A stretch of 59,017 nucleotides of DNA, filler included, from Sphacelaria rigidula (GCA_964200075.2; 6 parts of 6 records of this genome joined end to end with filler, not necessarily neighbours in it); one strand, 5' to 3'. Positions 5,801 to 50,179 are shown, numbered from the whole stretch's first letter. Notes: generated from the letters alone by a model not told the origin. A program made the numbers and translations.

Positions 5801-6994
5801 AGGAACACGGGAGTAGCTAAACCGAACCAAAATGCTGACACTCCACGCCGGAACATACCGTCATGAGCAAACCGTTCAGTGTTTCCTGCGTGTCTTCCCC
5901 GAAGCATTCACGTTCAACGCCGGTTCCCTCATCGGGATGCGACACACCCCAGACAAGAGTGTAGGTGAAACAAGGGCGGGAGTAGTAGAGGGCACGGTTA
6001 GTATGCGTTGAAAGTCTTGGAGTCCGTGAAAATATGGCTCGAGTCTATAGCACGTGACGCAGATCGAAATGTCGTGTGCCGGGCGGTAAATTCGGCGTTT
6101 CGGCCTTGCGAACCAGATAGATGAAACGATTACAAGCGGAATCTTGCTCAAGCATGATGAGTACAGGCAGCGCAACAGACAGGGCCCTGCAGATAGCCTA
6201 CATCCGCACGATAAAAAAAAAACAGCACGATCGCCAAACACGATACAAAATTACCAAAACATGAAATGAAAAATCGTGCAGCTCCACAGAGCAAGATGAC
6301 GGCGGCGCAAAATTATAAAACACGTAATGCAATCGGGTGGCTCATAAAGAAAGTTGCGGTAGACATGACACCCGGAGATACAGAAAATATTAGAATGCAT
6401 GATGAAAGAAAATTTATCAAGACCGAAAAAAATGGAAGCTTTACCGCACGTGCATTTCAACAATCCCCATGACCACAAAAAAAACGCAAAATACATACAT
6501 ATCATGGTGGGTTGATTGTCCCAATTCAATATACAACAAAAATACCAAAATAGTATGGAGAATGCCTGGAACACGATCATTGCTGGTTAGGTACAGCGGT
6601 GATATCATGGGTGAACAGGTATAGGTCAGGCGAAGGTGATATAATGCAGGCGACAATGATGACAAAACAAAAACGGTGCGATCAGATCGGAGCAAGGTTC
6701 AAAAAGAACATGAGGGCGGAAAGTACGCGTGCACATGACAACATGCGATGCGATAGCAAGCGAGAAACGTACAGCCGACAGTAGGCGGTAGAGGCAAAAA
6801 CGACACAACAAGCGGGGCAACAACAGCAAACCAGGGTAGCAGAAAGCATGGTGGAAACAGCAGCAGCAGCAGCAACAGCAACGATGACAGCACAGCAGCA
6901 GCACAACAACAGGAGCAGCAGCAACAGACAACCACGACGACGACAACAACAACAACATCAACAGTAAAAATAGACAACAACGACAACAACAACG

Positions 6995-7061
<67 letters not shown>

Positions 7062-8380
7062 AAGCAACACACAGCGACGGCGCGGCAGCGGCGAAAAACA
7101 GCACAGAAAAATGGCACAGCCGTGCGGCGAGCAGCAGCAACACACAGCGGCGGCATGGCAGCGACGAACAACAGCACAGAACGACAGCGAAAACCACAAC
7201 AACAGACAACAACAACGCGGCTGCACAGCTTCCGCAGCTGTCTGGAGCCTGATGTCCGAAAACGACCCGAAGTATTTGTAGACCCTCTGGTTCGTTGAAC
7301 TTGTGCAATTCTCCTTCAACCGTATTGCATTTTATAGAATTGTTTTGGCTAGGTCACTTCACTTTTGCTTTGGACGTCAGCAGTGTCTGTTGGGCTCGTT
7401 CAAGATGGGAAGTTGTAGCGCGTGCTGATGAACCACCACAGATGAGCTCGTGCATAAGGCCGTTCGTGGCGCTCTGCTTGGGTATGACTGCAAGATAGTG
7501 CAACGCGGGCGAGAAAAAGGAGCAACGCGGGGGTACGGAGCATAGGGCCCCCACGGGGCAAAACAAACTACATAGCCCGCTCTCAACTATTTATGCTCAA
7601 CGTGCGTATGGTAGTTAGACAGAACAAAAAAGGGCGAAGAGCCGACGCGGCATACCATCATAGTACAATGTACATGCTCTCCAACCATGTCAGAGACACC
7701 CAGTCGTGAACTTCAAAGGCACCGCCTACTTTGTACTGTACTAGATGATCTTGCAGCTGTGATATACGGTGGAAATGACAGCTTGTGAACCGGTACACTA
7801 TTTACTCTATATAATAGTAACATTATACCGGATGCGACTTACACGCCAGAAAAACCTCCCCTCCAAACGTTTGTGTTCGGAGCATGCCGGGGTTGACTCT
7901 ACACAAGCACGGCATTGGACACGATGTCATGGTTCGATACTCACCGCCTAGCTGGGAATGGTGCCAGTTCAGTGGGCACCTGGGCTAGCGGGCTCAAACA
8001 AAACCATGAATATGGAATCCATTGAGCTCGACGTTACCGAGTGCAGAGTCAGTCATCTTCGCAGCGTCGGGCTGCATACCCGATGAGCCGCTCGGACGCC
8101 AGAACAACAAATCTTGCATGAAAAACAGGCTTACATTGTGAAAAGACCAGAGATCCCTCTGATACCGCAGTCCGTGATGGCGTAGATGCTCTTGTATTAT
8201 TGGCGTACAGGCTAACTTGTGTTTTGCTAGTTGAGATGCATATTCCAAAACGCTATAACACATGGGGGCAGCCAGCTCAATCTAATAACACAATGTAGTA
8301 TGACCCATCAGGTAACAAGCATGACAAAGTATGACACATGGAACCTAGTCGACTGGAAAATGACCAATAAATCTGTAACA
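2899..8380 (-). mobile_element. Non-autonomous LTR retroelement (LARD-like) with 456-bp LTRs at 2899-3354 and 7925-8380
   Basis: The direct repeats are near-identical and bounded by TG...CA. A 4-bp TSD, GGTG, lies at 2895-2898 and 8381-8384. A purine tract on the minus strand (GGCTAGGGGGA, 3355-3365) abuts the left LTR. No gag/pol ORF is recognisable inside. Confidence 0.88.
6975..7061 (+). repeat. (CAA)n microsatellite within a CAG/CAA-rich low-complexity tract
   Basis: Direct read of the sequence. Confidence 0.95.
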
Positions 8381-23762: not shown

Positions 23763-23796
23763 AATAGTGGCAGTGGCAGTAATAGTAGTAGTAATA

Positions 23797-23842
<46 letters not shown>

Positions 23843-23895
23843 CAGCAGTAGCAGTAGCAGTAGCAGCAGCAGTAGCAGTAGCAGCAGTAGTAGTA
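23763..23895 (+). repeat. (AGT/AGC)n microsatellite
   Basis: Direct read of the sequence. Confidence 0.9.
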
Positions 23896-26872
23896 GGATG
23901 AGGAGGAGGAGCCCGTACTCGTATCTGATCAAAATACATACATGCAGGGCATATACGTTCGCAACTGCTTTCGAAGGAAAGCCTTGCTCACTTGTATATC
24001 AATACCGGCAATACAGTCCTGTCTGTACTGTTTACACGGTGTGCGTGTTTCGTCCAGAAGTATATGGAGAAGGGGGGCAAAGTGCAGTACAGACAACACA
24101 GGACTGCCCATAATCTCTTCGTACAAATGGATGTAAAAAACATTAGAACAGCGTGCAGTTTTGTACTGCCTGTACTGTCCATGATCGTGTTCGCAAGTCG
24201 GCCGCCCACCCTACCGCGCAATTCGGTCCCTGATGCCTACGATAAAAAAAAATGCTCATGTTCCCGCCGGCAAAAAATAAAGATATCATGCCTAGAGGGT
24301 GGTAGTGTCGGTTCCCTATTACTGATGTGGATGTACCCTGTGCTCAAATCGTGATCTATGCTACGGTTTGCGTTGGACTGTCGATAAACTTGTACGGGGA
24401 TTGCGATGTTCTATAAAAGGGTGGTATCCAGCGTGGTGGTCTGCAAGATAGGAGTCAAGTGCCCCTCCATTTTTTTGCGCTGCGTGTTTTCGATCGAAAG
24501 AGCTGAGCTTTTCTGCTTTTGACCCTGCCCGTCGCGCGTGAATAATTATAAAACGGACTTGAAGCCACGTGGGAACATGAATGCCGTGGACGTATCAGAT
24601 ACCAGCTAATTCGATCCCACCGCACGTTTTCGAATCGAAAACAGTTGATAAGACACGGCCTGAGTCACTTCACGCTACGATGCAAAGAAAACACCGTAGT
24701 ATAGTACACAACAGACTACGGTCGGCACACTGTACCAAAATAGTGCAGCAAAGTCACGAACAAAAAGCACAACAGTACTGTAGATAATGCGTCTTCACGG
24801 ACTGTACTGCGGGCCATCCTTGCGAATATCTCCAACGCAACGAGTGAACAGCCCCCTCCCTTGCTCCTCCTTTTCTAACGTTCCTGCAGGCGTCCGTGTC
24901 CTTCAGTATCCACCCACGCCTCCGAAAACTCATTTCCAAAAACTTGCGGGAGGTCAGCCAACACAACAAACAACGTTTTCGTGAGATTGAGAGTAGAGCG
25001 CTGATTGAGAGGGGCTTCGACCATTCGCTTTAACCTAGCCAATTCTTCGTTCCGTGTTTGCTCTTCTTTGCCTCCATCACTGGCGTGTGCTTACAGCTAC
25101 ACGTCGATATCCTACTCAGGGATATCAAGGGCCTCAGTGGCAAGCTACTACAGAAAGCATATCGGCCCTCGTGGAGGGGTATTTCGGATCTGAAACGATT
25201 CATTCACCAATTGACCGCTTCTCACTCTCAATCGTATCATTTACTCTCAATCGCACGAAAACGCTGTTAATATTGGAACCTGGAGACTTCATGAAAATGC
25301 CAACATTGAATACTGACAAATTGAGGTCAAACGGCGGCTGTGTCATGACACACCTATTTCCATAAACACGAGAGGCAATCGAGCATTTGTAAAGGAATCA
25401 ACGTACGAGAATCTCGCGCCATATTAAACCCCGGCTGGTGAACACATTTACTGTTTTTTTACCACCGCATCAGCATACATCGGTGTACGCTTGCTAACAC
25501 CACTACTAGAATGGACAAAGCCAACAATCGAATGCAGCCACTGTCTGTGGTCGGGCAAATCCTGGCTCTTCCGGGGCAGCGCCGGCACACACCTCGAGCA
25601 TGATTCGGTGTTTGGATTGTACGTCCAAAACGTTTTGGTTCTGGGCTGCATAATGAATCGTTTCTGCGTTTGTGTGCTTTTTAACCAACTGTCAGATCAA
25701 CTGTTCATGCTCCCGGAACTGACGACACGAAGGTGGTTTTTCCACAGTTTCGTGCGTTTATGCTTCATTTTTGCTGACGACAAACTTTCATGGCACGAAA
25801 CTGGAAAAGATGCTTCAGTTGCACGATCGGATAGCTCTTTTGCTTTCAAAAAGAACACACGAATCTGGGGGCCCATTTTTGGTACGAGAGCACAGAGGTC
25901 GCCCAAAAAAACGGAAACGTGCCAGCGCGCACAAGATAGCGCAAGCCAAGCCCTATTCAAGGTTGGAACGCTCATCAAACAAGGCCCAACCAGGTTGACC
26001 TTCGCCAGCGTATCCGCCCAACATGCATGGCCATGGATATGAGGGAGCGAGCAGCAGTCAAAACGCTCACGTCCCTCCTACTTGGGCAAGATAAATTTGG
26101 TCGTGCGAGCGGCCCGTTGGCCATGGTGCTGCTGGGACGCAAGCTGCTAGCTTATATACCTTCGAGGCTTCAGCGGTTAGCCTGCTGGTGTGGCCTCGGG
26201 GGTTTCAACGGTCCGATATTCACCTCGGCTCGTCTGCTGCGCCCAAGAACAGCAGCTGAACCAATTATATGTTTCTAAGCTCAACGCGTTTGCTGCAGTT
26301 CTTTTGATAAAACGATAAAACCATCTCTCCTTCGCCAAGGGCCAGCCAATACACGAGTGTACAACCGGTTGGGCAAGCACGGCTGGAGCAAGTGGAAGGC
26401 CTGTCACCACGAGGCCAATGTTGGAGTACAAGTAGAGCGCACCCAAGTGGAGTTATTGCTCAGGAGTGGGTGGTTCGAGAGGAGGAGTGATCCGGGTGGG
26501 CGCTGTACACCGGTGGCAACTACTGGGCTGTTGCCATCTTCACACACACATGGCTGTCAAGACCCGCATGTCAGTCCGATCCCCTCGCATCTACGCAGAT
26601 CCCACTTACTGCACCTTCTCACAGGAGCACTCACTCCTCCTGATATGGTACAACACTGACGAGACCTCTCTAAGGAAAATACAAGAACAAATGGGGGAAA
26701 ACTCGGCCTTCCGAGCACAAGCTCCCTTCCTTCAAACGGCGTTGCAGATGGTGATGGTGTAGACGACACCGTCCCTGGATCGCTGATGAGACCTTGAACA
26801 GGTCTCTGTGAAACCACCCCGGCTTCTCCACCCCCCCCGCTACCAACGAGTATTTGCGGCGTGGCCCTTGCC

Positions 26873-38135: not shown

Positions 38136-39815
38136 GTGATTTTGGGGGAGGAGAATTGCCGTGTTATAGTATGTTGTACAAAAGTCCTCTGCAGCGCATC
38201 GTCTGCGATAGTGCATACCGGACACCGTGGTTGAGTTACAGGCCATTTGACCACGCGGTGCTCCCTGGTTGTTGAACTTACCATTATCCCAGGTTCGTTT
38301 GAGTGCTCACAGTGAAAACTAAAACGTGTGAGCACGCGAGGTTGGTCCGACCATCCGTGTGGCTTCTTGACCGGTAGCCAGAAAGATTTCCGCGTGTCGC
38401 TCGCGCAAACTCCTGTTTGCCACGCACATGTGATTTGACGTCAACACCAAGTGCCATAGATAATTCGCATTTTCTTGCGCAAAAGCGAGGTGCTGCTGAG
38501 CACGGGCCGCCTGAAATGGTATCACCCCTGATCCCTCCTAGACTCAGCATTTTCTTCGGGTACAGAACAGTGTGTGCAGTATAGCAACACATTGCTTGAA
38601 CATGTGACATGGTATTTTGAATTTTCGCTAACCACATGACACGCGTGAAGAGCTCGCGCAATCTCTGACAGCTCCCAGATGCATAGTAGTTTCCAGCTGA
38701 ATCAGCATGTTTTATGATTTTTTCGTGGTCGGCGATTTTCAATAGTTCTACGTTTGCCACTGCCCATCCCAATGAGCGTTTGATTCAAAGTCGGGGGGTC
38801 GGGAGATACTAAGCATCCGCTCCACATTCCGAAACAAAGGTCATATCTGCACTGAACGTTTGACGACTTATGAGCTGACCGGTCCACGGCGGTCCTGCGA
38901 CCACCGAACCCCAGGTTCTGACCCTTGGGTCCTCGATTGAAGCAATCCCGATCGTTCTCGTGAACAAATGTCAAGTTTTTTTGGTTTCCGCCTTTTTATT
39001 ACGCTAGGGCTGAAACGTTTTTGGACCAGCGATGGCCAATAACACCCCCTGATAAACGAGGGCCTTACTCCTTGCCACCCCGTCAACACCAACTTGAGGA
39101 TCGTGTCCATAGTACCACCTGCTTCTTTTACCAGCATGTATCGACGGTAGTATTTTCGAGTGCTAAAGAAGAATGCTATACGAGAAAATTCAGATGAGTA
39201 CTGTACCCAACTACGAAAATTGCCCAACCGAGCTCTGTAAAGCACAGGGGGGGAAGGGGGTGTACTCATGATCATGCATGCCATAGTCGTCAGACCATTA
39301 ACGTCGCATCCCTNNNNNNNNNNNNNNNNNNNNNNNNNNNNNNNNNNNNNNNNNNNNTTAATTAATTAANNNNNNNNNNNNNNNNNNNNNNNNNNNNNNN
39401 NNNNNNNNNNNNNATTTTTTATTATTCCACTAACACAGGGTCAACCCTGTGTTAGTGGGGGTCCGGTCCCAAAAGGGTTAATAGGACAGCAGTCGTACTT
39501 CCAGACTTTTCTGCACGGAGGAACCATGAACCGCAGAGCCGCTACCGCCTCTTCATATCACTATTTTTCTCTTTGTCTTTTTTCGGATGTTGGAGACTAG
39601 TCGAAGCTACCGTTGGATACCAAAAGATCGGTTCCAGTCAAAACACTGCTGACAAACCAGCCATTGGCGTCAGGGGTGGCTTAAGGTGGGCCTAATACGG
39701 CACTTTCCTCTACTGTTGCGCGAGTACATTCGAGCGGCCTTCCGGTCAACGCACGCGAGCGAATGCCACTCGTATTGTGAAGTCATTACTGTAGCAACTA
39801 AACGACCAAACTTAC

Positions 39816-40415
39816 ATCGAGTAAAGATTTCGTGGTCCGAAACCCCGCCCATTCGCTGGACCCACTGTGGTTGGACTCGGTCGCCGCCCCAGGCCTCGTT
39901 GCTGCGTCGCACCGAGCGAGAAGTTCCGCTAGAAAATATGTATCTTCCTCCTGATCAAGGGAAGATTCGGTGCTTGCTGACATGCTGGCGGTTTCGCGAT
40001 CTACTTCTTCTGCTCTTGCAGCAGGGGGGACGGAAACCGTTCGCTCAGAGATTTTGGCGTTTTTCTCCTGAAATCTGTGCTCATCAGTATTGCTCGGCTT
40101 GGCCGCCATATTCATGTTCCCGCTTCTGCTGCTAGTGCCGCCATTTTTGCTGTTGCGGCTGCTGCTCGTGCTGCTGCTCGCCACCAAGGTGAAGTTGCTG
40201 TTGCTACACCATGACGTTGATCGTTGTGAGTGTAACGGTCGGATCGAGCATGTTGTTGCAGTTGGTTGTAGACAAGGGTAGTGATCAACACGATCAGTGT
40301 TACACAACCTTTTGCCGACAGCAGTGCCCACAAAAGCCGCAACGGGTCTTGGTAGATTCAAAAACAGCACGCTCAGGGCTATGGTGGCAAGAGCGGCGGG
40401 CAAGCCCGGCGCCAT
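39816..40415 (-). CDS. First exon (200 codons) of a predicted plastid-targeted protein of unknown function; remaining exons not seen before the contig end
   Basis: The sequence starts MAPGLPAALATIALSVLFLNLPRPVAAFVG, a signal peptide with an ASAFAP-like cleavage motif (VAA|F), followed by a Ser/Thr/Arg-rich transit-like region. It ends at a strong donor, GAT|GTAAGT, at 39816/39815. Confidence 0.7.
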
Positions 40416-40815
40416 CCCTAGGCAAGTGCCTGGTGAACATGAAGTTGAAACACAAATAATTAAATTTTCATAGTGAGACGAACCATTGGACATCGCAATG
40501 CTAAATTGGAGTACGACCTTTCTTATACGTGGTGAACGCAAGGAGTTCTGCGCTTTCGTCCCAGCCCGGCGCAGCGCCCGGCCGTGTATGCTGACGTCAT
40601 AGAGGACTGCTCAGTAGTTTTGGCTACTGTAGGTGGTTGCGCCAGATAGAAGTTGCCGGGGGGAGGGCAGCAAATAGTGGTGCATTTCGGCGTTGTACGC
40701 CCAAGTCACCTGTGCTTCAACTCCATATCTCTCCGCAGCGTCGCCCTTAGGCAACGGCGGACACAATACTGCAGTGCTGTACAACTGTACGGGGCGGTAC
40801 TGTACTGTAGCAGAC

Positions 40816-41080
40816 ATGGTTCGGCTGGTGGATGGTGCGATAGTGGAAGATGATGATCCGTCGTGGCAATGGAGGAGTTGGACGATCAATCTGTTTGGGT
40901 TTCGAGTGCCCATTCTTCCGTGGGGTGTTTTGATCGCCGCATTTTTCTTCTTGAGATTCGGTCCATATGGGCTCGGTCTCTTCGCCGTCGTTGCAGGTGG
41001 GTTTGCAATGTCACCGTGGAAAATAGTCCAAAACGAAAACGGATTATTGAGTACATACGATTAATACGCTTCATGTGAAG

Positions 41081-41154
<74 letters not shown>

Positions 41155-44100
41155 ACGATTACCATTTTCATTCACACGATTGTTTGAATTGATACGTAGT
41201 ACAAAAGTTGGTCGATGCTGCGTGATGCTGCATAACGTCTCCAGTATACAATATCCACAACTGCGACGGTCGGTTGGAAGAGGAGTTATAAATAGTTACC
41301 CTGGCCAGGACCCGGACTAGCTGCCAGTTGCACTCGAAACGTGCTCCAGGTAACCGTAAAGGTTGTCATGTTGCGTTGACTGTACTCGCAGCGCGACTCA
41401 TACTGTGCAACCCGCAGAACTTGTTGTCGAACAGATACCAGATACCCTCGTTTTCCAATACACCACCTGCGATATCAAACAGATACCAGAAGTTTCAGCA
41501 TCATCCGAGACCTGGTGCGGGGTGCCTTGAGGCATGACCTTCAGATGTATCGCCTCCATACTTTGGAAATGGAAAAACACTGAGTAATTCATGCACAGTT
41601 ATGGGCGCGCCTGACCCCCCAAAATGGGCAAAAAAAGTGTCACCGACCAATATCACGAACAGACACGAACAGACCGACTTCTGGGGCTTTTCCAGGCTCG
41701 TGGAGTAAAATGCGCCTCACGTCATCGGAAGAGAACGGCATGGATCCAAAATTCATACCGAAAAAAACTGGACTGCCGTCTAAACCAAAACCCTACCGTT
41801 TGGTCGGTGACACTTTTTGGGCTCATCTTGGGGGGTCAGGCGCGCCTATAACAGTGCCATGGGATATTGCACGGGGTACAGTGCGGTAACCCAACCGCAG
41901 CAGGGGCTGAGGCAAGTAGGTTGTTGACCATTCTGGAACCATGTAGTTATTGTCGATACTGAAACCAAGTAACTGCACTGTAACTAAAACCAAGTAGACA
42001 TTGACTGTTGTACTCTAAATCCAAGTAGTTATTAACACTGAAACCAAGTTATTATGATCAGGCTGAACTCTAGTATATTTTGTACCTTACTCATCCCAAG
42101 AAATTTAGTCACTCACACTAAGGTCAAGTAATTCCATCGGTACGTAGACGATACCATACGAGTACATTATCCAAAAAGAATGTAAGTTGGTAAATTTCGA
42201 CGTTAATCCTTTTGGGACCGGACCCCCACTAACACAAAGTCAACCCTGTGTTGGTGGGATAATAAAAAGAAGTCTCCGAGCGACCTGCCCAATCACGGCG
42301 AGCCGAGATTTATCGACCAGATCCGAACGACCAGCGCGGGGATTATTGTCGAGTGTGATGCCACTGCAAAGATCGTGTGGGGGCCCTATCCCTGGCCCAG
42401 ATAAGCCTCCCCAGGTTTTCAACAAGTGCAGGGCGGTCGCAGCTTGTTTTTATGGTATTACTTGCACTTAGTATAGCGTTCCCGCGTTTTTCCGGAGTGT
42501 TTTTTGGGTCCCAATTCTACACTGAAACGTAGTAATTCATACTAACACAGGGTGGACCGGAAAAAACCGGGAAGGATTGTACATGCTACAATGTGGTCAT
42601 TTTCACGAGGCACTAAACCCAGGTGGGCCGTGGAAGGACAAAATGAGCTACCGTCATGGATTCTGCTTATCCCTATGCCGATGACTTGCAGTGTTCAGTT
42701 CACATGTACGGAGTATGTAGTAGGCGGAGATGAAGAAGCGATATGTAGGCAGTTGATCACGGTGGCTGAGAATTGCCCAGAACGTGCAAGGGAGTATGCA
42801 ACGGCAGCTGCTGCTGCAGTCGGGGAGGCGTACTGCACTGTACTTGTACTATACTATACTGTTGTATGCATGCGCGCCGCAACACTGATATACCCTTCGA
42901 AGAGAATTTACCGCATGCAACAAGGAGGGAAATGGCGGTCCACCCCGACTACAAAGGGCTGTGTGGCAAGGTGAAAGGTACAACAATACCATCCAAAGCC
43001 ATAAGTTGCGGGCGGCCCGCCGGTCGCCGTATCCTGTTGGAAGCTCTCTACCGCGATCCATACTGCTTGCTACATCAGATGTACACTACCTAATGCGCAC
43101 CCTCCACCTGAAAATAGATTGAATGAAACTTTCGGTCTTCGTCATAACCCTGCGGTGACATACGCGGATTTTCAGCAACATGCCACTGTTTCGCGCAGAC
43201 ACCAGACACGTCATTCCTAACCAGCCTCATCGGTCGTTCTGGAGGCCCGATCCCAAAAGGGTTAAAGCACAGTGCTGTCGAGGCCCATGGCCGTCTTCGG
43301 CCTTAGCTGGCGCCAGCGGTGCTCGATTTCGTGTCCTGCCCTTATTTTCCTCATTCTCGACAGCCTCCGAGGGGGTGTGTGCGTACTCATTTGTTTGCCT
43401 TATTCGTTTCCCCATTGACCACGCATCCCTTTCGAGACAGAGGGGGGGGAGGGCTTTGGCTCCCAGTGACGGCATATTGTGGATGGATTACTTCACGCTA
43501 GTCTGCGGCATGTCGTCAGACATGTCATACAACTGAAGGAAGAATACACTCGCAGTGGAAGCTGTTGGTACAGAACGGTGCTTGTCTGCAAGAGTTGAAA
43601 AATCACTCACTCGTGCCCACGGCACATTGCAAACGCCTCCAAACTTGTATACACACCCCATAGAATAGTGTGTCAGTACATTTCACCTTGTCCAAGAGCT
43701 CCTTCATCGAATACCACTCTGCGGCTCGCGTCTCGTCGACAACTATGGCTGTTTGCCGATATCACTTTGCCGCACGACAGGTGTCTGATTCTTCGTGCAT
43801 ACCTCGAGCACAGTTCTAGTAGGTGGTACATTGGCCGAGGGGCGTTGCGCTGCAAGAGGCAGTAGTCGCGAGGCAGCACGTGGAGGTACAGCCGCCATGA
43901 TATGCACGCGCAATATATCAACGTTTTCTAGCATAGCTGTGGCTCCTCGAGATATCTCCCTGTGCAAAAACTACTCCAGCGTCATATATAGTGCTGGTGC
44001 GCAGCCTCCACCATGGAGGAGCATAGATATACTGCCCATTGTTGGTTTGCTGGGTCCTTGACATTTTCTCACTTATAACTGCACGTGTGCGATGGACCGG

Positions 44101-44857
44101 ACCGAAACCGCCGGGTAAATTTGATTTTTGCTAATATTGAAACCTCCAGGTGCCAGTCGTTTCATGTGTGACGGCAACAGGGGTGATTCTCGGAGCCGCA
44201 TCAGTCGCGGTGGCGGCGGAAGCCGACGTTCAGGTACGGAGTCGTGGCACTGTGTGTATGCCAGACCCTCAACGTGGTCGCCTCATGACGCTTGCCCTGC
44301 TGAATTTGATAGTGGAGCACGGGATAGGTGTTTGAGTTGTTCAAACGATCTTTGTGTCCTGCGGGGCGTGGTGGTTGTGGCGGTGGTCGTACGGTGTACA
44401 ATATATATATATATTGTTGTTTTCGCGTGCGTTTGTGGGTAATACATGGTACAGTCATCATGATTGAAATTCAGTGTTGATGAACCTGCCAAAGCACTTC
44501 GCCATTTGCGCCGTAGTTCCAGCTCCAGCGGATTGTTGCACATCAGTAATTTCCAACAATGACCTCCGGAAACCGACCAATATTTTGCCATCGTCACTTG
44601 TCTTGTGCCTTTGTCATGTACTTCAAGAATCGTGGTCGCCTATTAGGAACAGCACGAGAGCCCTCAGGTGTAGCTTTTCCATAACAAAGCGCCGTGTCTG
44701 CGCGCTCCCTTGTCGCCGCCGCCTTCGACGCATGTACGCCTTGTGGTGCATTCTCTACTCGTCGTCCTTCCATGCGTTCGCAGGCTCTAACGTACGGGGC
44801 ATGGACGACCTGCCAAAGTCACCACCGCCTAGCTGACGCGGGCCGGGCGCGTGCTAG
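40816..44857 (+). CDS. Predicted small membrane selenoprotein (SelK/SelS-like architecture, FAM241/DUF4605-like N-terminus); exons 40816-40996, 44150-44233, 44784-44857; 112 aa, Sec106 encoded by TGA 44834-44836
   Basis: The exons join through GT-AG introns in matching phase (1,1). Product: MVRLVDGAIVEDDDPSWQWRSWTINLFGFRVPILPWGVLIAAFFFLRFGPYGLGLFAVVAG-ASRFMCDGNRGDSRSRISRGGGGSRRSG-SNVRGMDDLPKSPPPS-U-RGPGAC-TAG. It has a hydrophobic segment, a Gly/Arg/Pro-rich tail, a near-terminal TGA and a downstream SECIS. Confidence 0.8.
41080..41153 (+). repeat. (ACA)n microsatellite in selenoprotein intron 1
   Basis: Direct read of the sequence. Confidence 0.95.
41598..41852. mobile_element. MITE (about 255 bp, about 50-bp TIRs) in intron 1 of the selenoprotein gene
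   Basis: Left end GTTATGGGCGCGCCTGACCCCCCAAAATGGGCAAAAAAAGTGTCACCGACCA; right end TGGTCGGTGACACTTTTTGGGCTCATCTTGGGGGGTCAGGCGCGCCTATAAC. Confidence 0.8.
42580..43085 (+). repeat. Dispersed repeat of about 500 bp; inverted copy at about 49320-49775
   Basis: The shared text translates as YVVGGDEEA...QLI..AENC.ERA.EYA.AAAA.VGEAYCT in both copies (ORFs 42552+ and 49301-). Confidence 0.8.
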
Positions 44858-45689
44858 GTTGTTAGCGCACGCTCGATGATGAATATTGTGCACCTCCCCC
44901 CCCCGCATACATCCCACACCTTCCATAAGTGACGGAGCATCGTATCCCGAGTGCTACGTTTTTCAATCTCGAAGCCGTCGAGAGCACAAGCCTGCTCTTC
45001 CCGAGATGTCCCTGTCTGTCAAAGATGTGGACAAAGTATGGGTTTAATCGTTTCATCACTAGGGGTAATGGTCTCCACAAATAGTGGCTTCGCCGAATTC
45101 GGGTTTTGGACTACGCGTCTAAGCGAGACATTGCGAGCGATGGAGCAAAACACCTCCTCTTTGTAACGCACATTTTTTTATTGCTGCGGCGTCTGCGAGA
45201 CTCGCGGCAACGTCGCCGAAAGTTACGTCGTTGAAATATTTTGTCGAAATATTTCGATGAAGTGGATCTCTTGGTCAAGTTTCTTCTTGTTCATCTCGAA
45301 TAGTAAGAAGATTGACAAGTTATCCCCTCGTTGAGGTTCCATACTCCAATGCCTGCGGTATAGTACGCATGATTTTGCCGTTGTGGGTACTTGCCACCAT
45401 TTGCCATCGAGTCCAAGGGGTCTAAGAAGTTAGACTGGTGTGGCGATGAAAATATTGTGTATTAGTACATATTAGTGCAAGAGAGGAGAGGGTAGGCGAA
45501 ACAGTGGGCGTTCGGGGAAGGGGGGGTAGGAGGGAGCCCGTCAGGGTCCATTTTCCACAATGCTTACCTTGCCGTGCTACAGATGATCAAATGATGCTGA
45601 CGCTGTAGCCGGTCGTGTGAGAATGTTCAGTAGTGGTAATGGTCTTTTTGCCATAGTGCTGATGGCTTCTATGAACGGAAGAGAGGAAA

Positions 45690-45765
45690 GGGTTTCGGTA
45701 ATGACGTTTGGTGGCAAAAATGCCCTCCGGGGTGCGCCAGCAGGCTGACACGCGATTCTCGTTCC
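45690..45765 (+). promoter_or_regulatory. Eukaryotic SECIS element, type 2 (3' UTR of the selenoprotein gene)
   Basis: Sequence: ATGAC (45701-45705), GTTTGGTGGC, AAAAA (45716-45720), mini-stem TGCCC-TCCG-GGGTG, C, GCCAGCAGGC, TGAC (45746-45749). Helix II pairs 9 of 10 positions, two of them G-U. The UGAC/UGAC non-Watson-Crick quartet is present and 11 nt separate ATGA from the apical As. Confidence 0.85.
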
Positions 45766-48700
45766 TTTTGCTCTTTTGATTTTTCTTGTTATGTTGGTGA
45801 GTATGTGTTGGTTGCCGTGTTGGTGCTGTGGCCCCGTTCTTGTGGTTTCGTTGTTACGCATTCCGCGGACTTTGAGCGTTTGCATGATTGCGCACTGAGT
45901 ATTATTGAACCTTGCGTCCGCTTTTGCTTGGCTTTCGCCGTGTATATTGTCCATGTATGTGTTTGCGTAAGCTATCCTTTTGGCGCTGGCGCCGTCAACA
46001 TGTTGTGCGCTGCGCCCATTCATGGAAACCTGAGTATGATAGATCATGTTTGAGTGAAGATGACCGCCGATTCCACAGATGAGAAGCACGGGCGGTCGAA
46101 GAGTTGATGCACATACTCATTAGTGTTTTGCACGTTTTACGCGGGTTCGCTAGGCTGATTCGCGTCAAGTAGAAATCGGCGATCATGAGATTCTTCACGA
46201 TGCGTACTACCTCGAAAGATGTTCAGAATTGTTTTTCATGGCAAGTCTGCGGAACATCCCGAAACCGGTAGTGGAATAAAACTCGGATTCGAGTAGAAAC
46301 ATACAGCGCAGACAGTTCAGAGACATGCGTGTTGCGTACATTAATGAAGATTCGTCGGCCCTACTTCAGTGGGTTAGCTTCCATTTTTCCCGTGGTTTCA
46401 CCGGATTCGGTTGCGAGCTGGTGCAAGTAGTCACGTCTTATCTTCGGTTTGAAGCTCTGCGAACCAGATCTGTCCAATGGCATGCTGTAACACGTGAAAC
46501 ATTTCTCCAGTGGAGCGCTCATCACCGTTTAGATAGAGGGAAAATATGTTTTATCGTATACTTGACAGTTACGTTGCCACATCTTGGCGTGTTGACAGAT
46601 GTTGGCTTTTAAGTTGTACCTGGTTTCCTCCAGACCGTGTGGGATTGGTGGAGGAATTGAAGATGTAGTCTTTGATACCAAGAGTCCAGTTTTCGTATGC
46701 TTGAGCGCCAAGTTGCATGCATTCCTTACGAAACCTGAGAAAATCGCTGAAGTTTGGCAGCCTGCGACGGCACGCTCTTTCTGTCCCGCAAACCGCACTC
46801 CCGAAATGTTTCACGGCTCGGATAACTAAAATAGTGATTCGGCTCATGTTCAACATTTGGACGAGCCAACCATACGATTCGTATCCAAGTTGTTACTTGT
46901 ACATGTTTGGGGTTCGTGAGTCGTACGGCAATTCTATGATTCGTGCGATGCACCGTCGAAGGTACACATTTCCTACCTTCCATTCGTATGGCGTGATTCA
47001 TAAGTACATGTTCCCCGATTTCCATTGATTCAGCGCAGCATGAATCATAGGCACACGCTCCCCACTGACCTTTTTTCGTACGAGGTGAATCAAGTGTACG
47101 TGGCTACGAATTTCCGTTCATGCAGCATGAATCAAATGTACAAGTTTCCCATTTTCCACTCAAACGAGGTGAATCAAACATGAATGTTTTCCCAAATTCC
47201 AATCATGCAGCATGGATCGTACGTACATGTTCCGTAATTTCCGTTCATACGAGATGGATGAAGCTTACATGTTTCCCCTTTTCTTCCACGCAGCGCACAC
47301 CATACGTACATGTCCAGACTCGTGTACTATCTAGACGACTGCGGAGCTACCGATCGAGGGTATGTCGAGTGACGGGGACCCATTTGTGAAGAAAATGTGT
47401 ACGCCAAGCGACACATATGGCAAGATCTTTCGTCGTGAGTACTACCGCGATATTTTCATGGTACATCGCGCTTGAAAGCCTCGGCGTTTTGGTGCGTTGC
47501 AGTTAGGGCCGTTATTATCGACAAAGTTTTTTGGGAGATCGTCCTAATTTTAGGCGTTTTCGCACTTTTTTTACCACCTTCTCCCAAAATAAAGCGGCGA
47601 GATTTTTTTGCCAAGCCTTCACGTTTGGCGAAAGTCCGATTTTTCGCACCCCAGCACATTACTCTGCAGAGCTGCCCTTGGCGCACGCCGTGGCGTTCGC
47701 AAGCATGCGATAGTCATCCCGAACCTTGCTAGTGACACCCTGGGCTATGTCGTAAAGTAAAAAGCACCGCGGGATAGCGGTATCTATCTCCTTAGACGGT
47801 GTGTGCCCCGGCAGCGGTGTTGGAGCTTTTGGAGTCAAGCACCGTCGTTTGCAGACATGAGCACTTTCGAAGTGAAGAGCAGGAACAATCCAGTAGCTAT
47901 CTACTTGCCTGCTGTGCTGCTACGTGTGTACGCTACCGCACCGTCTGAAAAGTGTACAGCTGGTGGGTTAATTGGGTGTATCTGCGCATACTGTACAACT
48001 CACAGAAGGAAAGCATGCTGCAATCTATCTGCGGGGCTTTCTACAGTCGGTATTTTCACTCATGTGTGCTGCTCCAGCATCCCGAGAGAGCCGGTCGATC
48101 ACGCCCTAGCCTGTCCGACTGCCCCCCCGTGTCACAGAGAGGTTTTGAGAAGGATGTTTACCACAGTGTTCGCTTTGGGTCCGTTCAAGCGTTCGAAGAT
48201 AGCGTCGAACAGCACAAAGAATCTTTGCTGGCATTGGCATCTGCAAATTAATACAGTACCATCACAAATCGACAACTTAACGTTCTTATTTGAAACCAAC
48301 GGGCATCAAAGTGTTTGTAGTTACGAAGACGGGCATTTTCATTGACGAGAAACTCTGTGTTCCCCCGTAGCCGTTACATGCGGTCTCAAAAAGTATGCTG
48401 TCCTTCTTTCAAACCTGGCGGACGGACGGGGAAGCCGCAATCCCTCGGGTAAGGAGAGTCATTTCAACCATGTCGACGTACTTTGAAAAAACGAGCTCTT
48501 TCCTTTCCAAAGGTATTCCGAATTTGGATTCATAATAACATGTGATATTATAACCGAGTGTGACCTCTATAGGCAGACATCTGTAGACGGGAAGCAGCCA
48601 GTAGAGTAGGTAGACGAAAGCTCCAGATCGCAGCTGACGCACCCCTCTGCACGATGCTAGCAACAGTTAGGTCATCATCATAGGTATCTTTTTCCACTCT

Positions 48701-50179
48701 GCATGTCAAGAAGGTCTTCACAAGTGTTTGATCTGCCGTGCACTCCCCCCCAACTCGCGTGTGGTCAAGCGCCCGGGTGGGGTGGCGGACAACCAACGAT
48801 GAATAACACCCCCTAAGCTCATATTGGATATATCTGGTTTTGCCGCAGCACCGTCCTTGCGGGCATGTGTGTGACAGAGAACAGTAGTAGCGGTGACGGA
48901 AATATTGCCCTCTTTTTCAAGGATATGTTCTTCAGCGCACAGAGGCGCGTGCTGTCCAAAAAGAGAGCCAGAGAGAAATTGATCTTCGCATCGATGATGA
49001 GGTGCTCACGCAAGACGAAGAAACGAGATCTCTTCGCAGGTCGGTCTTTAGGCACAACATGGAAAGTTCGGTTCATGCTGGTAACATGCATGATGCCAGT
49101 CTCTCGAGCGATTGGTAATCGCCGAGCGAGGACACACAAAGGACACGGGCGAGGAGCTTCCTCTCNNNNNNNNNNNNNNNNNNNNNNNNNNNNNNNNNNN
49201 NNNNNNNNNTTAATTAATTAANNNNNNNNNNNNNNNNNNNNNNNNNNNNNNNNNNNNNNNNNNNNGAGGCACTAGATGCCCTTAATCTGGACATTGCGTC
49301 TCATTTTTTTAGGGCTGTTACAAGCAGTATGGGTCGCCGTAGGAAGCTTTCGACAGGATGTGGTGGCCGGCGGGCCGCCCGCCACTTGTGGCTTTGGATT
49401 ATTTTGTTGTCCCCATCACGTTGCCACACAACCCTTTGTGGTCGGGGTGAACCGCGATTTCCCTCTTCGTCGCAAGCGGCAAAGTCTCTTCGAAGGGTAT
49501 GAGCATTGCGGCGACATACATAAGAGTACAGTCCAGTGCAGTACGCCTCTCCGACTGCATCAGCAGCAGCTGCGGCTGCATACTCTTTTGCACGTTCTGA
49601 GCAGTTCTCAGCTGCCGAGATCAACTGCTTATTTACCGCTTCTTCATCCCCGCCCACTACGTACATGTTCACAATGCTCTGCAAGGCATCGGCGGAGGGA
49701 TAGGCGGAATTCATGGCGATAGCTCTTTTTGTCCTTCCACTGCCCACCTGACTCTAGTGCCTCGTGAAGATGATCACATGGGAGCATGTACACTCCTTGT
49801 CGGTTTTCCCCCTCCACCCTGTGTTAGTAATACGAGAAGCCTTTCTCTGAGCATCCGGGATTCTCTTTCAGTACCTGGGAAGACTTGTCTGGGCCAGGGA
49901 TGGAGCCCCCACACGATATTGGCAGTGACATCATCAAACTCGCTATCCTGAAAGCAGCACAGACAGTACTCCCGGCATAGAAACGGATACCAAGTATGCC
50001 GGAATGGTGTAAAAGTCCCGAAACGAGAGCAGCAGTACAGCAGAGGCAGCACTTGCCCACGGACGGCAGGCATGACACCTGGTTAAAGACAATCGCACCC
50101 CAGCAACGTGAAAAGCATTCAGAGCCGCGTGTTAAGGAGTACGCACTGCGACAGACGGCGGTGCCCATGCACACCTGGA

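Follow-up and report, generated by a model that had tools for sequence, protein, structure and literature searches.

A three-exon gene on the plus strand of a 59,017-nucleotide stretch of Sphacelaria rigidula DNA (assembly GCA_964200075.2, six parts joined end to end with filler; hereafter the window) likely encodes a real selenoprotein, a predicted membrane protein of 112 residues in which an in-frame TGA codon would specify selenocysteine (Sec) at residue 106. Judged from its sequence, the protein probably has an architecture like that of selenoprotein K (SelK or SELENOK) and probably belongs to an uncatalogued family. An original prediction made from this region (40816-45765) had proposed a spliced, expressed gene for a small membrane protein with a TGA codon and a selenocysteine insertion sequence (SECIS) element on the same transcript, and all of the tests run here support that core reading.

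Gene model and transcript

Direct reading of the sequence places the start codon at 40816 (+) in the context gcagacATGg, with no other ATG in the 216 bases read upstream of it. Exon 1 is followed by the donor gtgggt (gt at 40997), exon 2 is bounded by ..ccag before 44150 and gtacgg after 44233, and ..cgcag precedes exon 3 at 44784 (Table 1). The three exons are phase-compatible and contribute 181 + 84 + 50 nucleotides (nt), or 105 codons, ahead of a TGA codon at 44834-44836, the proposed Sec106 codon; this is followed by CGC GGG CCG GGC GCG TGC and then by TAG at 44855-44857, and translation of the joined exons gives a single in-frame TGA. The original prediction had all of these coordinates and the frame right, and translation with TGA read as U also reproduces the extension U-R-G-P-G-A-C that it had placed before the TAG.

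The exon peptides have an acidic N-terminus, a hydropathy plot gives a hydrophobic stretch at about residues 22-69, and the 51-residue tail is rich in G, S, R and P, in agreement with the hydrophobic segment and Gly/Arg/Pro-rich tail that had been predicted. The layout is that of SelK-type proteins: an N-terminal membrane segment, a Gly-rich tail of disordered type and a putative Sec near the C-terminus (residue 106 of 112). The AlphaFold model of the Ectocarpus orthologue (below) has helices at residues 39-53 and 55-67 and a tail with no secondary structure, mostly at a predicted local distance difference test score (pLDDT) below 50; the model as a whole is of low confidence (mean pLDDT 54.1), and because of this mean of 54 it is unfit for a fold search. 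A sequence search of the PDB with the family profile gave no match at E <= 10.

Is this frame transcribed and spliced as drawn? Ten public sequencing runs, none of them recorded as RNA, cover part of the window, and four were compared with it over 40700-46000. Two of these, X1 and X5, were treated as RNA because their contigs carry spliced joints. A single X1 contig of 2402 letters matches 40700-40993, the 84-nt exon and 44781-46000 with zero mismatches, and it extends about 121 letters before 40700 and about 683 letters after 46000. Its joints skip 3153 and 550 nt and, after a shift within a 3-base ambiguity, fall at 40996/44150 and 44233/44784 with GT..AG borders, so that both splice junctions are exactly those predicted. 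Run X5, which comes from a different study, contains the first joint as well as pieces at 44974-45411 and 45685-46000, and has no pieces in the unique parts of the introns. The DNA run X7, on the other hand, gives a continuous contig over 43421-46000 with introns in place. Over the coding part of exon 3, neither the RNA contig of X1 nor the DNA contig of X7 has a differing letter.

A spliced molecule thus exists, and a single assembled contig joins its coding exons to both the TGA and the TAG and to the region of the SECIS. Both introns are GT..AG on the plus strand, which fits plus-strand transcription; the contigs themselves show neither the ends, the strand nor the level of a transcript. 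The frame, the spliced contig and the homologues spanning all three exons (below) together place the in-frame UGA within a real, expressed coding frame. The claim that the SECIS lies in the 3' untranslated region (UTR) of the same transcript is supported in that the X1 contig runs from the exons through 45701-45749 to beyond 46000; as contigs cannot show where a transcript ends, that the coding exons and the SECIS share one mRNA is strongly suggested by these data, not proven.

The SECIS element

The sequence at 45685-45765, on the same strand as the gene and with its SECIS 844 nt past the TAG, folds as a type II SECIS. The original prediction had located the element at 45701-45749, where every canonical feature is indeed present: a core formed by ATGA (45701-45704) with GA (45747-45748), a helix I of 45685-45697 paired with 45753-45765, a helix II of 10 positions with one mismatch, a run of five unpaired A residues (45716-45720) and an apical mini-stem of 4-5 bp (45721-45734). 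The unconstrained minimum free energy (MFE) fold consists of the same parts, namely helix I, an open internal loop that holds AUGA and GA, helix II, the unpaired A residues and the apical stem. The Rfam SECIS_1 model aligns end to end at 45692-45758 with its AUGA, AAA and GA columns matched. Sub-threshold Rfam matches to mir-2363 and a fluoride riboswitch near the SECIS were dismissed as chance.

The frequency with which such a hairpin would arise by chance was estimated with a SECISearch-like pattern (ATGA, then a helix of 9-12 positions with one mismatch allowed, AA, an apical portion of 10-26 bases and GA). With both strands of the 59 kb scanned, the pattern finds this site and no other, and first-order Markov sequence is expected to give 0.21-0.22 chance matches per window. 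The calculated stem energies are -11.6 kcal/mol for helix I, -11.8 for helix II and -6.7 for the apical stem; none of the 421 pattern matches found in 2000 simulated windows (234 Mb, both strands) equals the element in all three, and the individual values are reached by 1.1%, 7.8% and 0.8% of those matches, respectively. When 23 decoy motif combinations were sought in the real window there were three matches, all far weaker than the SECIS. We judge a chance origin of the hairpin very unlikely.

Homologues and their C-terminal ends

A HMMER search of 1.84 billion representative proteins with the 60-residue exon 1 peptide gave eight proteins at E <= 1e-3, seven of which are relatives; E-values for exon 1 homologues run from 1e-30 to 3e-4. 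The eighth, P0005, is a repetitive protein of 1063 residues whose match was attributed to low-complexity repeats and not counted. The relatives are for the most part gene calls made on genomic contigs and continue from exon 1 into the intron. A profile search enlarged the set to 32 proteins, in which there are brown-alga-type relatives only and no diatom, oomycete or animal protein, and a word-based search for longer exon 1 relatives gave no match. Exon 1 is 52% identical to its Ectocarpus counterpart and 82-96% identical to two contig-derived proteins.

Full-length models are available from the five species named in Table 1 and from several other Ectocarpus species, and they have in common the N-terminal block and the hydrophobic segment, together with a linker rich in Gly and a C-terminal block that is well conserved. 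The exon 3 peptide is identical to the end of the Undaria protein at 12 of 15 positions and to that of the Ectocarpus protein at 12 of 16, and in these alignments the last residue before the TGA pairs with the orthologue's own last residue (111 of 111 in Undaria, 108 of 108 in Ectocarpus). Each of the five named full-length models thus has its end where the TGA has its homologous position, which bears out the earlier claim that standard annotation truncates the protein there. Within the tail, conservation is highest in the part that directly precedes the stop. Such ends fit selenoprotein models truncated at UGA, and they fit a true stop equally well. A degenerate exon 3 pattern with the TGA codon left open found our own exon and no stretch in the metagenome, genome or viral collections, a result that is uninformative on conservation.

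Table 1. Parts of the candidate selenoprotein gene and full-length models of its orthologues
Feature	Position or accession	Strand	Length	Remarks
Exon 1, coding part	40816-40996	+	181 nt (60 codons + 1 base)	Conserved acidic N-terminal motif and hydrophobic membrane segment
Intron 1	40997-44149	+	3153 nt	GT..AG; joint in X1 and X5 contigs
Exon 2	44150-44233	+	84 nt	Gly/Arg/Ser-rich tail begins; flanked by both joints in one X1 contig
Intron 2	44234-44783	+	550 nt	GT..AG; joint in X1
Exon 3, coding part	44784-44857	+		S-N-V-R-G-M-D-D-L-P-K-S-P-P-P-S block, TGA, R-G-P-G-A-C, TAG
3' UTR	44858-46000 (as far as compared)	+		X1 covers 44781-46000 free of gaps and mismatches; X5 pieces
Type II SECIS element	45685-45765	+		Rfam SECIS_1 alignment, MFE fold, pattern and energy controls
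Full-length model, Ectocarpus siliculosus	CBN77854.1, D8LSL7		108 aa	Annotated "expressed unknown protein"
Full-length model, E. fasciculatus			110 aa	
Full-length model, Pylaiella littoralis			138 aa	
Full-length model, Scytosiphon promiscuus			113 aa	
Full-length model, Undaria pinnatifida			111 aa	

Proposed mode of expression and function

We propose that the gene is nuclear and belongs to a stramenopile alga akin to the brown algae, and that a ribosome would read 105 sense codons before it meets the UGA at 44834, to which the type II SECIS in the 3' UTR would recruit the Sec-insertion machinery; Sec would be inserted as residue 106, and termination would follow six codons on, at the UAG. 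The short acidic N-terminus is followed by a hydrophobic stretch some 45 residues long, either a single kinked helix or a helical hairpin, which is predicted to anchor the protein in a membrane, by analogy probably that of the endoplasmic reticulum (ER), and the predicted disordered Gly/Arg/Ser/Pro tail would presumably face the cytosol. In the last eight residues, S-U-R-G-P-G-A-C, the putative Sec and the terminal Cys flank a G-P-G turn, and this position on either side of the turn makes a reversible selenenylsulfide plausible, which would link Sec106 to Cys112 with R-G-P-G-A between them. By analogy with selenoproteins K and S, the protein may act as a flexible arm that is tethered to the membrane and carries a reactive selenol at its far end.

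Alternative readings

Several points weigh against the selenoprotein reading. A contig may merge overlapping transcripts, whose ends and strand are invisible in it. The orthologue comparison was made at the protein level, and protein-pattern scans for orthologous DNA returned 34, 31 and 38 stretches from metagenome, genome and viral contigs, respectively, none of which was confirmed. With only 17.1 bits, the SECIS_1 match falls below the gathering score of 35 (E = 7.2 for 1.8 kb against all families), and the MFE z-score of the whole hairpin is only -1.4. The energy thresholds used in the simulations were set post hoc at the observed values, and the null there was first-order Markov sequence and not a real genome.

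The low Rfam score is also what might be seen if the TGA at 44834 were simply the ordinary stop of a 105-residue membrane protein and the hairpin at 45701-45749, within a long 3' UTR, only looked like a SECIS, whether by chance or as an element without function. A next in-frame stop within seven codons has by arithmetic a chance of about 29%, orthologue models that end at this point are equally expected from a true stop, and the SECIS could have been picked first and an upstream TGA sought afterwards. We nevertheless think it unlikely that the TGA is an ordinary stop, because the hairpin has every canonical SECIS feature and no equal in the 234 Mb of simulated sequence or among the decoy motifs in the real window, because it lies on the sense strand within the span of the same spliced contig, and because the disordered tail is most conserved at its very end, a pattern that is uncommon at an ordinary C-terminus and characteristic of proteins with a C-terminal Sec that have been truncated. 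It is much less probable again that the SECIS is real and belongs to a different transcript or open frame with which the 3' region overlaps. Contigs can merge overlapping transcripts, as noted, and two stop-to-stop frames do overlap the SECIS, one of 137 aa (+, 45640-46053) and one of 179 aa (-, 45577-46116); the latter, however, has no Pfam match and, being on the minus strand, cannot use a plus-strand SECIS, and the two joints of the present gene are the only ones reported in 44000-46000. Nor is an alternative upstream TGA-containing frame apparent in 44858-45700, an impression gained from reading translations, with frames of at least 50 aa listed and no homologue search made.

A further alternative would leave the selenoprotein call standing and change the family assignment only, in that the protein would be a divergent member of the SelK/SelG family and the family would not be new. 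We regard this as rather unlikely. The architecture is the same (a short N-terminus, a membrane segment, a disordered Gly/Pro/Arg-rich tail and a Sec near the end), and SELENOK is among the 42 families of algal selenoproteins in a survey (PMC7539508). SelK is described as occurring in nearly all eukaryotes that use Sec, yet it is missing from the diatom list (PMC2375036), which leaves room for a divergent stramenopile form. Against this assignment, the Pfam family SelK_SelG (PF10961) is absent at E <= 10 from all scans, which covered 3 peptides, 6 proteins, 13 family members and 10 proteins; because HMMER's filters discard the majority of matches above about 0.1, a very distant relationship to SelK could have escaped these scans. 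The named family that does recur is DUF4605 instead (below), and the end S-U-R-G-P-G-A-C differs from the SelK end, which is of the G-G-U-G type.

Surroundings of the gene

The window appears to contain few genes and many introns and repeats. Intron 1 contains a high-copy repeat at 41585-43531, over which the summed contig depth in X7 is 1e5-1e6 as compared with about 68 in the flanking unique sequence; it has many variant letters and internal joints and is probably a transposable-element family. At 43391-43449 an element of about 50-60 nt reaches a depth of about 77,000 in X1 and about 550 in X5 and in a further run, X6, with 5-7 differences; many loose ends on both of its sides indicate that it is present in many sequence contexts, and it is possibly a repeat terminus. 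The same intron carries a perfect (ACA)24 microsatellite at 41081-41153, and similar trinucleotide arrays lie at 6903-7069 (ACA) and 23778-23896 (AGT).

On the minus strand at 39798-40610 a stop-to-stop frame of 270 codons is oriented head to head with the selenoprotein gene candidate and ends about 200 nt short of the latter's ATG. Pfam gave nothing for it at E <= 0.01; it could be an exon of a divergently transcribed neighbour. Of the 16 frames listed with a length of 170 aa or more, ten were compared with Pfam, among them the one that overlaps the SECIS on the minus strand, and gave nothing at E <= 0.01, and the whole window contains no tRNA gene and no Rfam family at gathering score. A run of N at about 49170-49265 is an assembly gap and appears as X in translations.

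Novelty and significance

Eukaryotic selenoprotein families are few, and each is informative on redox biology. In the present case the recoding mechanism is standard and the architecture SelK-like, and the family and its Sec context are apparently uncatalogued. A C-terminal U-x5-C arrangement around a G-P-G turn on a membrane-tethered disordered arm is not known from SelK, SelS or thioredoxin reductase. We found no description of the family as a selenoprotein in the literature searched, outside of which lie the per-species lists in the supplements of PMC7539508 and in SPDB, which may bear on novelty; the Ectocarpus accessions CBN77854 and D8LSL7 occurred in no paper found, and a literature search on FAM241 together with selenoproteins gave only an unrelated genome-wide association study. 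The algal survey describes 42 families, three of them new (PDI_e and AhpC_b as well as SymSEP), and reports that brown algae, from which the nearest named relatives come, use Sec and have 5-6 selenoprotein genes (PMC7539508).

If the gene does encode a selenoprotein, one more family would enlarge the brown-algal set, and a systematic annotation error would be corrected, as the putative Sec codon is where each of the named full-length orthologue models ends. Should the protein be a divergent SelK instead, it would supply the SelK that stramenopile catalogues lack.

Comparison with known proteins

The original prediction had also noted a resemblance to the FAM241/DUF4605 proteins. Six family members match the Pfam family DUF4605 (PF15378) at E-values of 0.0096-0.63 and 10-16 bits, the best being P0023 (E 0.0096, 16.1 bits), followed by P0021, P0036, P0010, P0025 and P0045 (E 0.1-0.63, 10-13 bits). 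The matches came from separate Pfam scans in which 1 of 6, 3 of 13 and 5 of 10 proteins matched, and in each of the six proteins it is the hydrophobic segment that aligns, always with profile positions 28-55 of 59; the exon 1 peptide of the present gene has no DUF4605 match in Pfam. What holds of the resemblance is this recurrence on the hydrophobic segment, and as every score lies below the family's gathering score of 27 bits, membership is not established and the similarity is only a lead. The N-terminus may also resemble that of FAM241, as the original prediction suggested.

A language-model search of a protein atlas with the Ectocarpus and Undaria proteins gave as nearest neighbours an unnamed diatom-rich cluster (scores 0.93 and 0.91, respectively) and an unnamed oomycete cluster (0.85 and 0.83); third, and the first with a name, was a chordate DUF4605 cluster (0.83 and 0.82). 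Scores below 0.9 in this atlas are leads only, and its ten-best rule rates the DUF4605 assignment as probably wrong. Tentatively, and with confidence well below even, brown algae and their relatives could have an uncatalogued selenoprotein family that is the stramenopile counterpart of FAM241, with a SelK-like arm that ends in a U-x5-C redox pair. If the weak DUF4605 signal is real, animal FAM241, whose function is unknown, would be tied to selenium-based redox chemistry; the counterpart relation, if true, would give a first biochemical clue to FAM241-type proteins (thiol or selenol redox at the ER membrane) and an evolutionary link between FAM241 and SelK-type proteins.

According to the FAM241 paper, FAM241 is a small ER-associated family with a conserved N-terminal block of 20 residues and a conserved hydrophobic membrane domain in the C-terminal part, it is absent from single-celled eukaryotes, and a mouse double knockout has no phenotype; selenium is not mentioned in the paper, in which the string "selen" occurs 0 times (PMC11880036). 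By this account FAM241A and FAM241B resemble the present protein as small membrane proteins with an N-terminal block and a hydrophobic domain (PMC11880036), and they differ from it in that their membrane domain lies near the C-terminus and carries no Sec tail. Compared by description, MSP, the "membrane selenoprotein" of green algae and Dictyostelium, is likewise a predicted protist membrane selenoprotein of restricted distribution, detected only in Dictyostelium, Chlamydomonas, Volvox and Ostreococcus (PMC2375036). Identity with MSP was excluded because MSP has two Sec residues (PMC2375036) and this gene one UGA.

The protein is most readily compared with SELENOK, with which it would share a length of about 100 residues, a short N-terminus ahead of one membrane segment, a disordered tail rich in Gly, Pro and Arg, a single Sec near the C-terminus encoded by a UGA that is recoded through a 3' UTR SECIS, and annotation that is routinely cut at this UGA. 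It differs in that six residues, the last of them Cys, come after its putative Sec (U-x5-C), whereas SelK has a G-rich end of one or two residues, and in that its hydrophobic segment, at about 45 residues, exceeds the length of a single transmembrane helix. SELENOS is membrane-anchored and has a disordered C-terminal arm, near the end of which a Sec pairs with a Cys as a selenenylsulfide. By description the present protein would resemble it in the membrane anchor and in the disordered C-terminal arm with Sec near the end, and the same description sets the two apart: SELENOS is about twice as long, has a coiled-coil and carries its Cys upstream of the Sec, whereas here the Cys is downstream of the predicted Sec and is the terminal residue of the protein.

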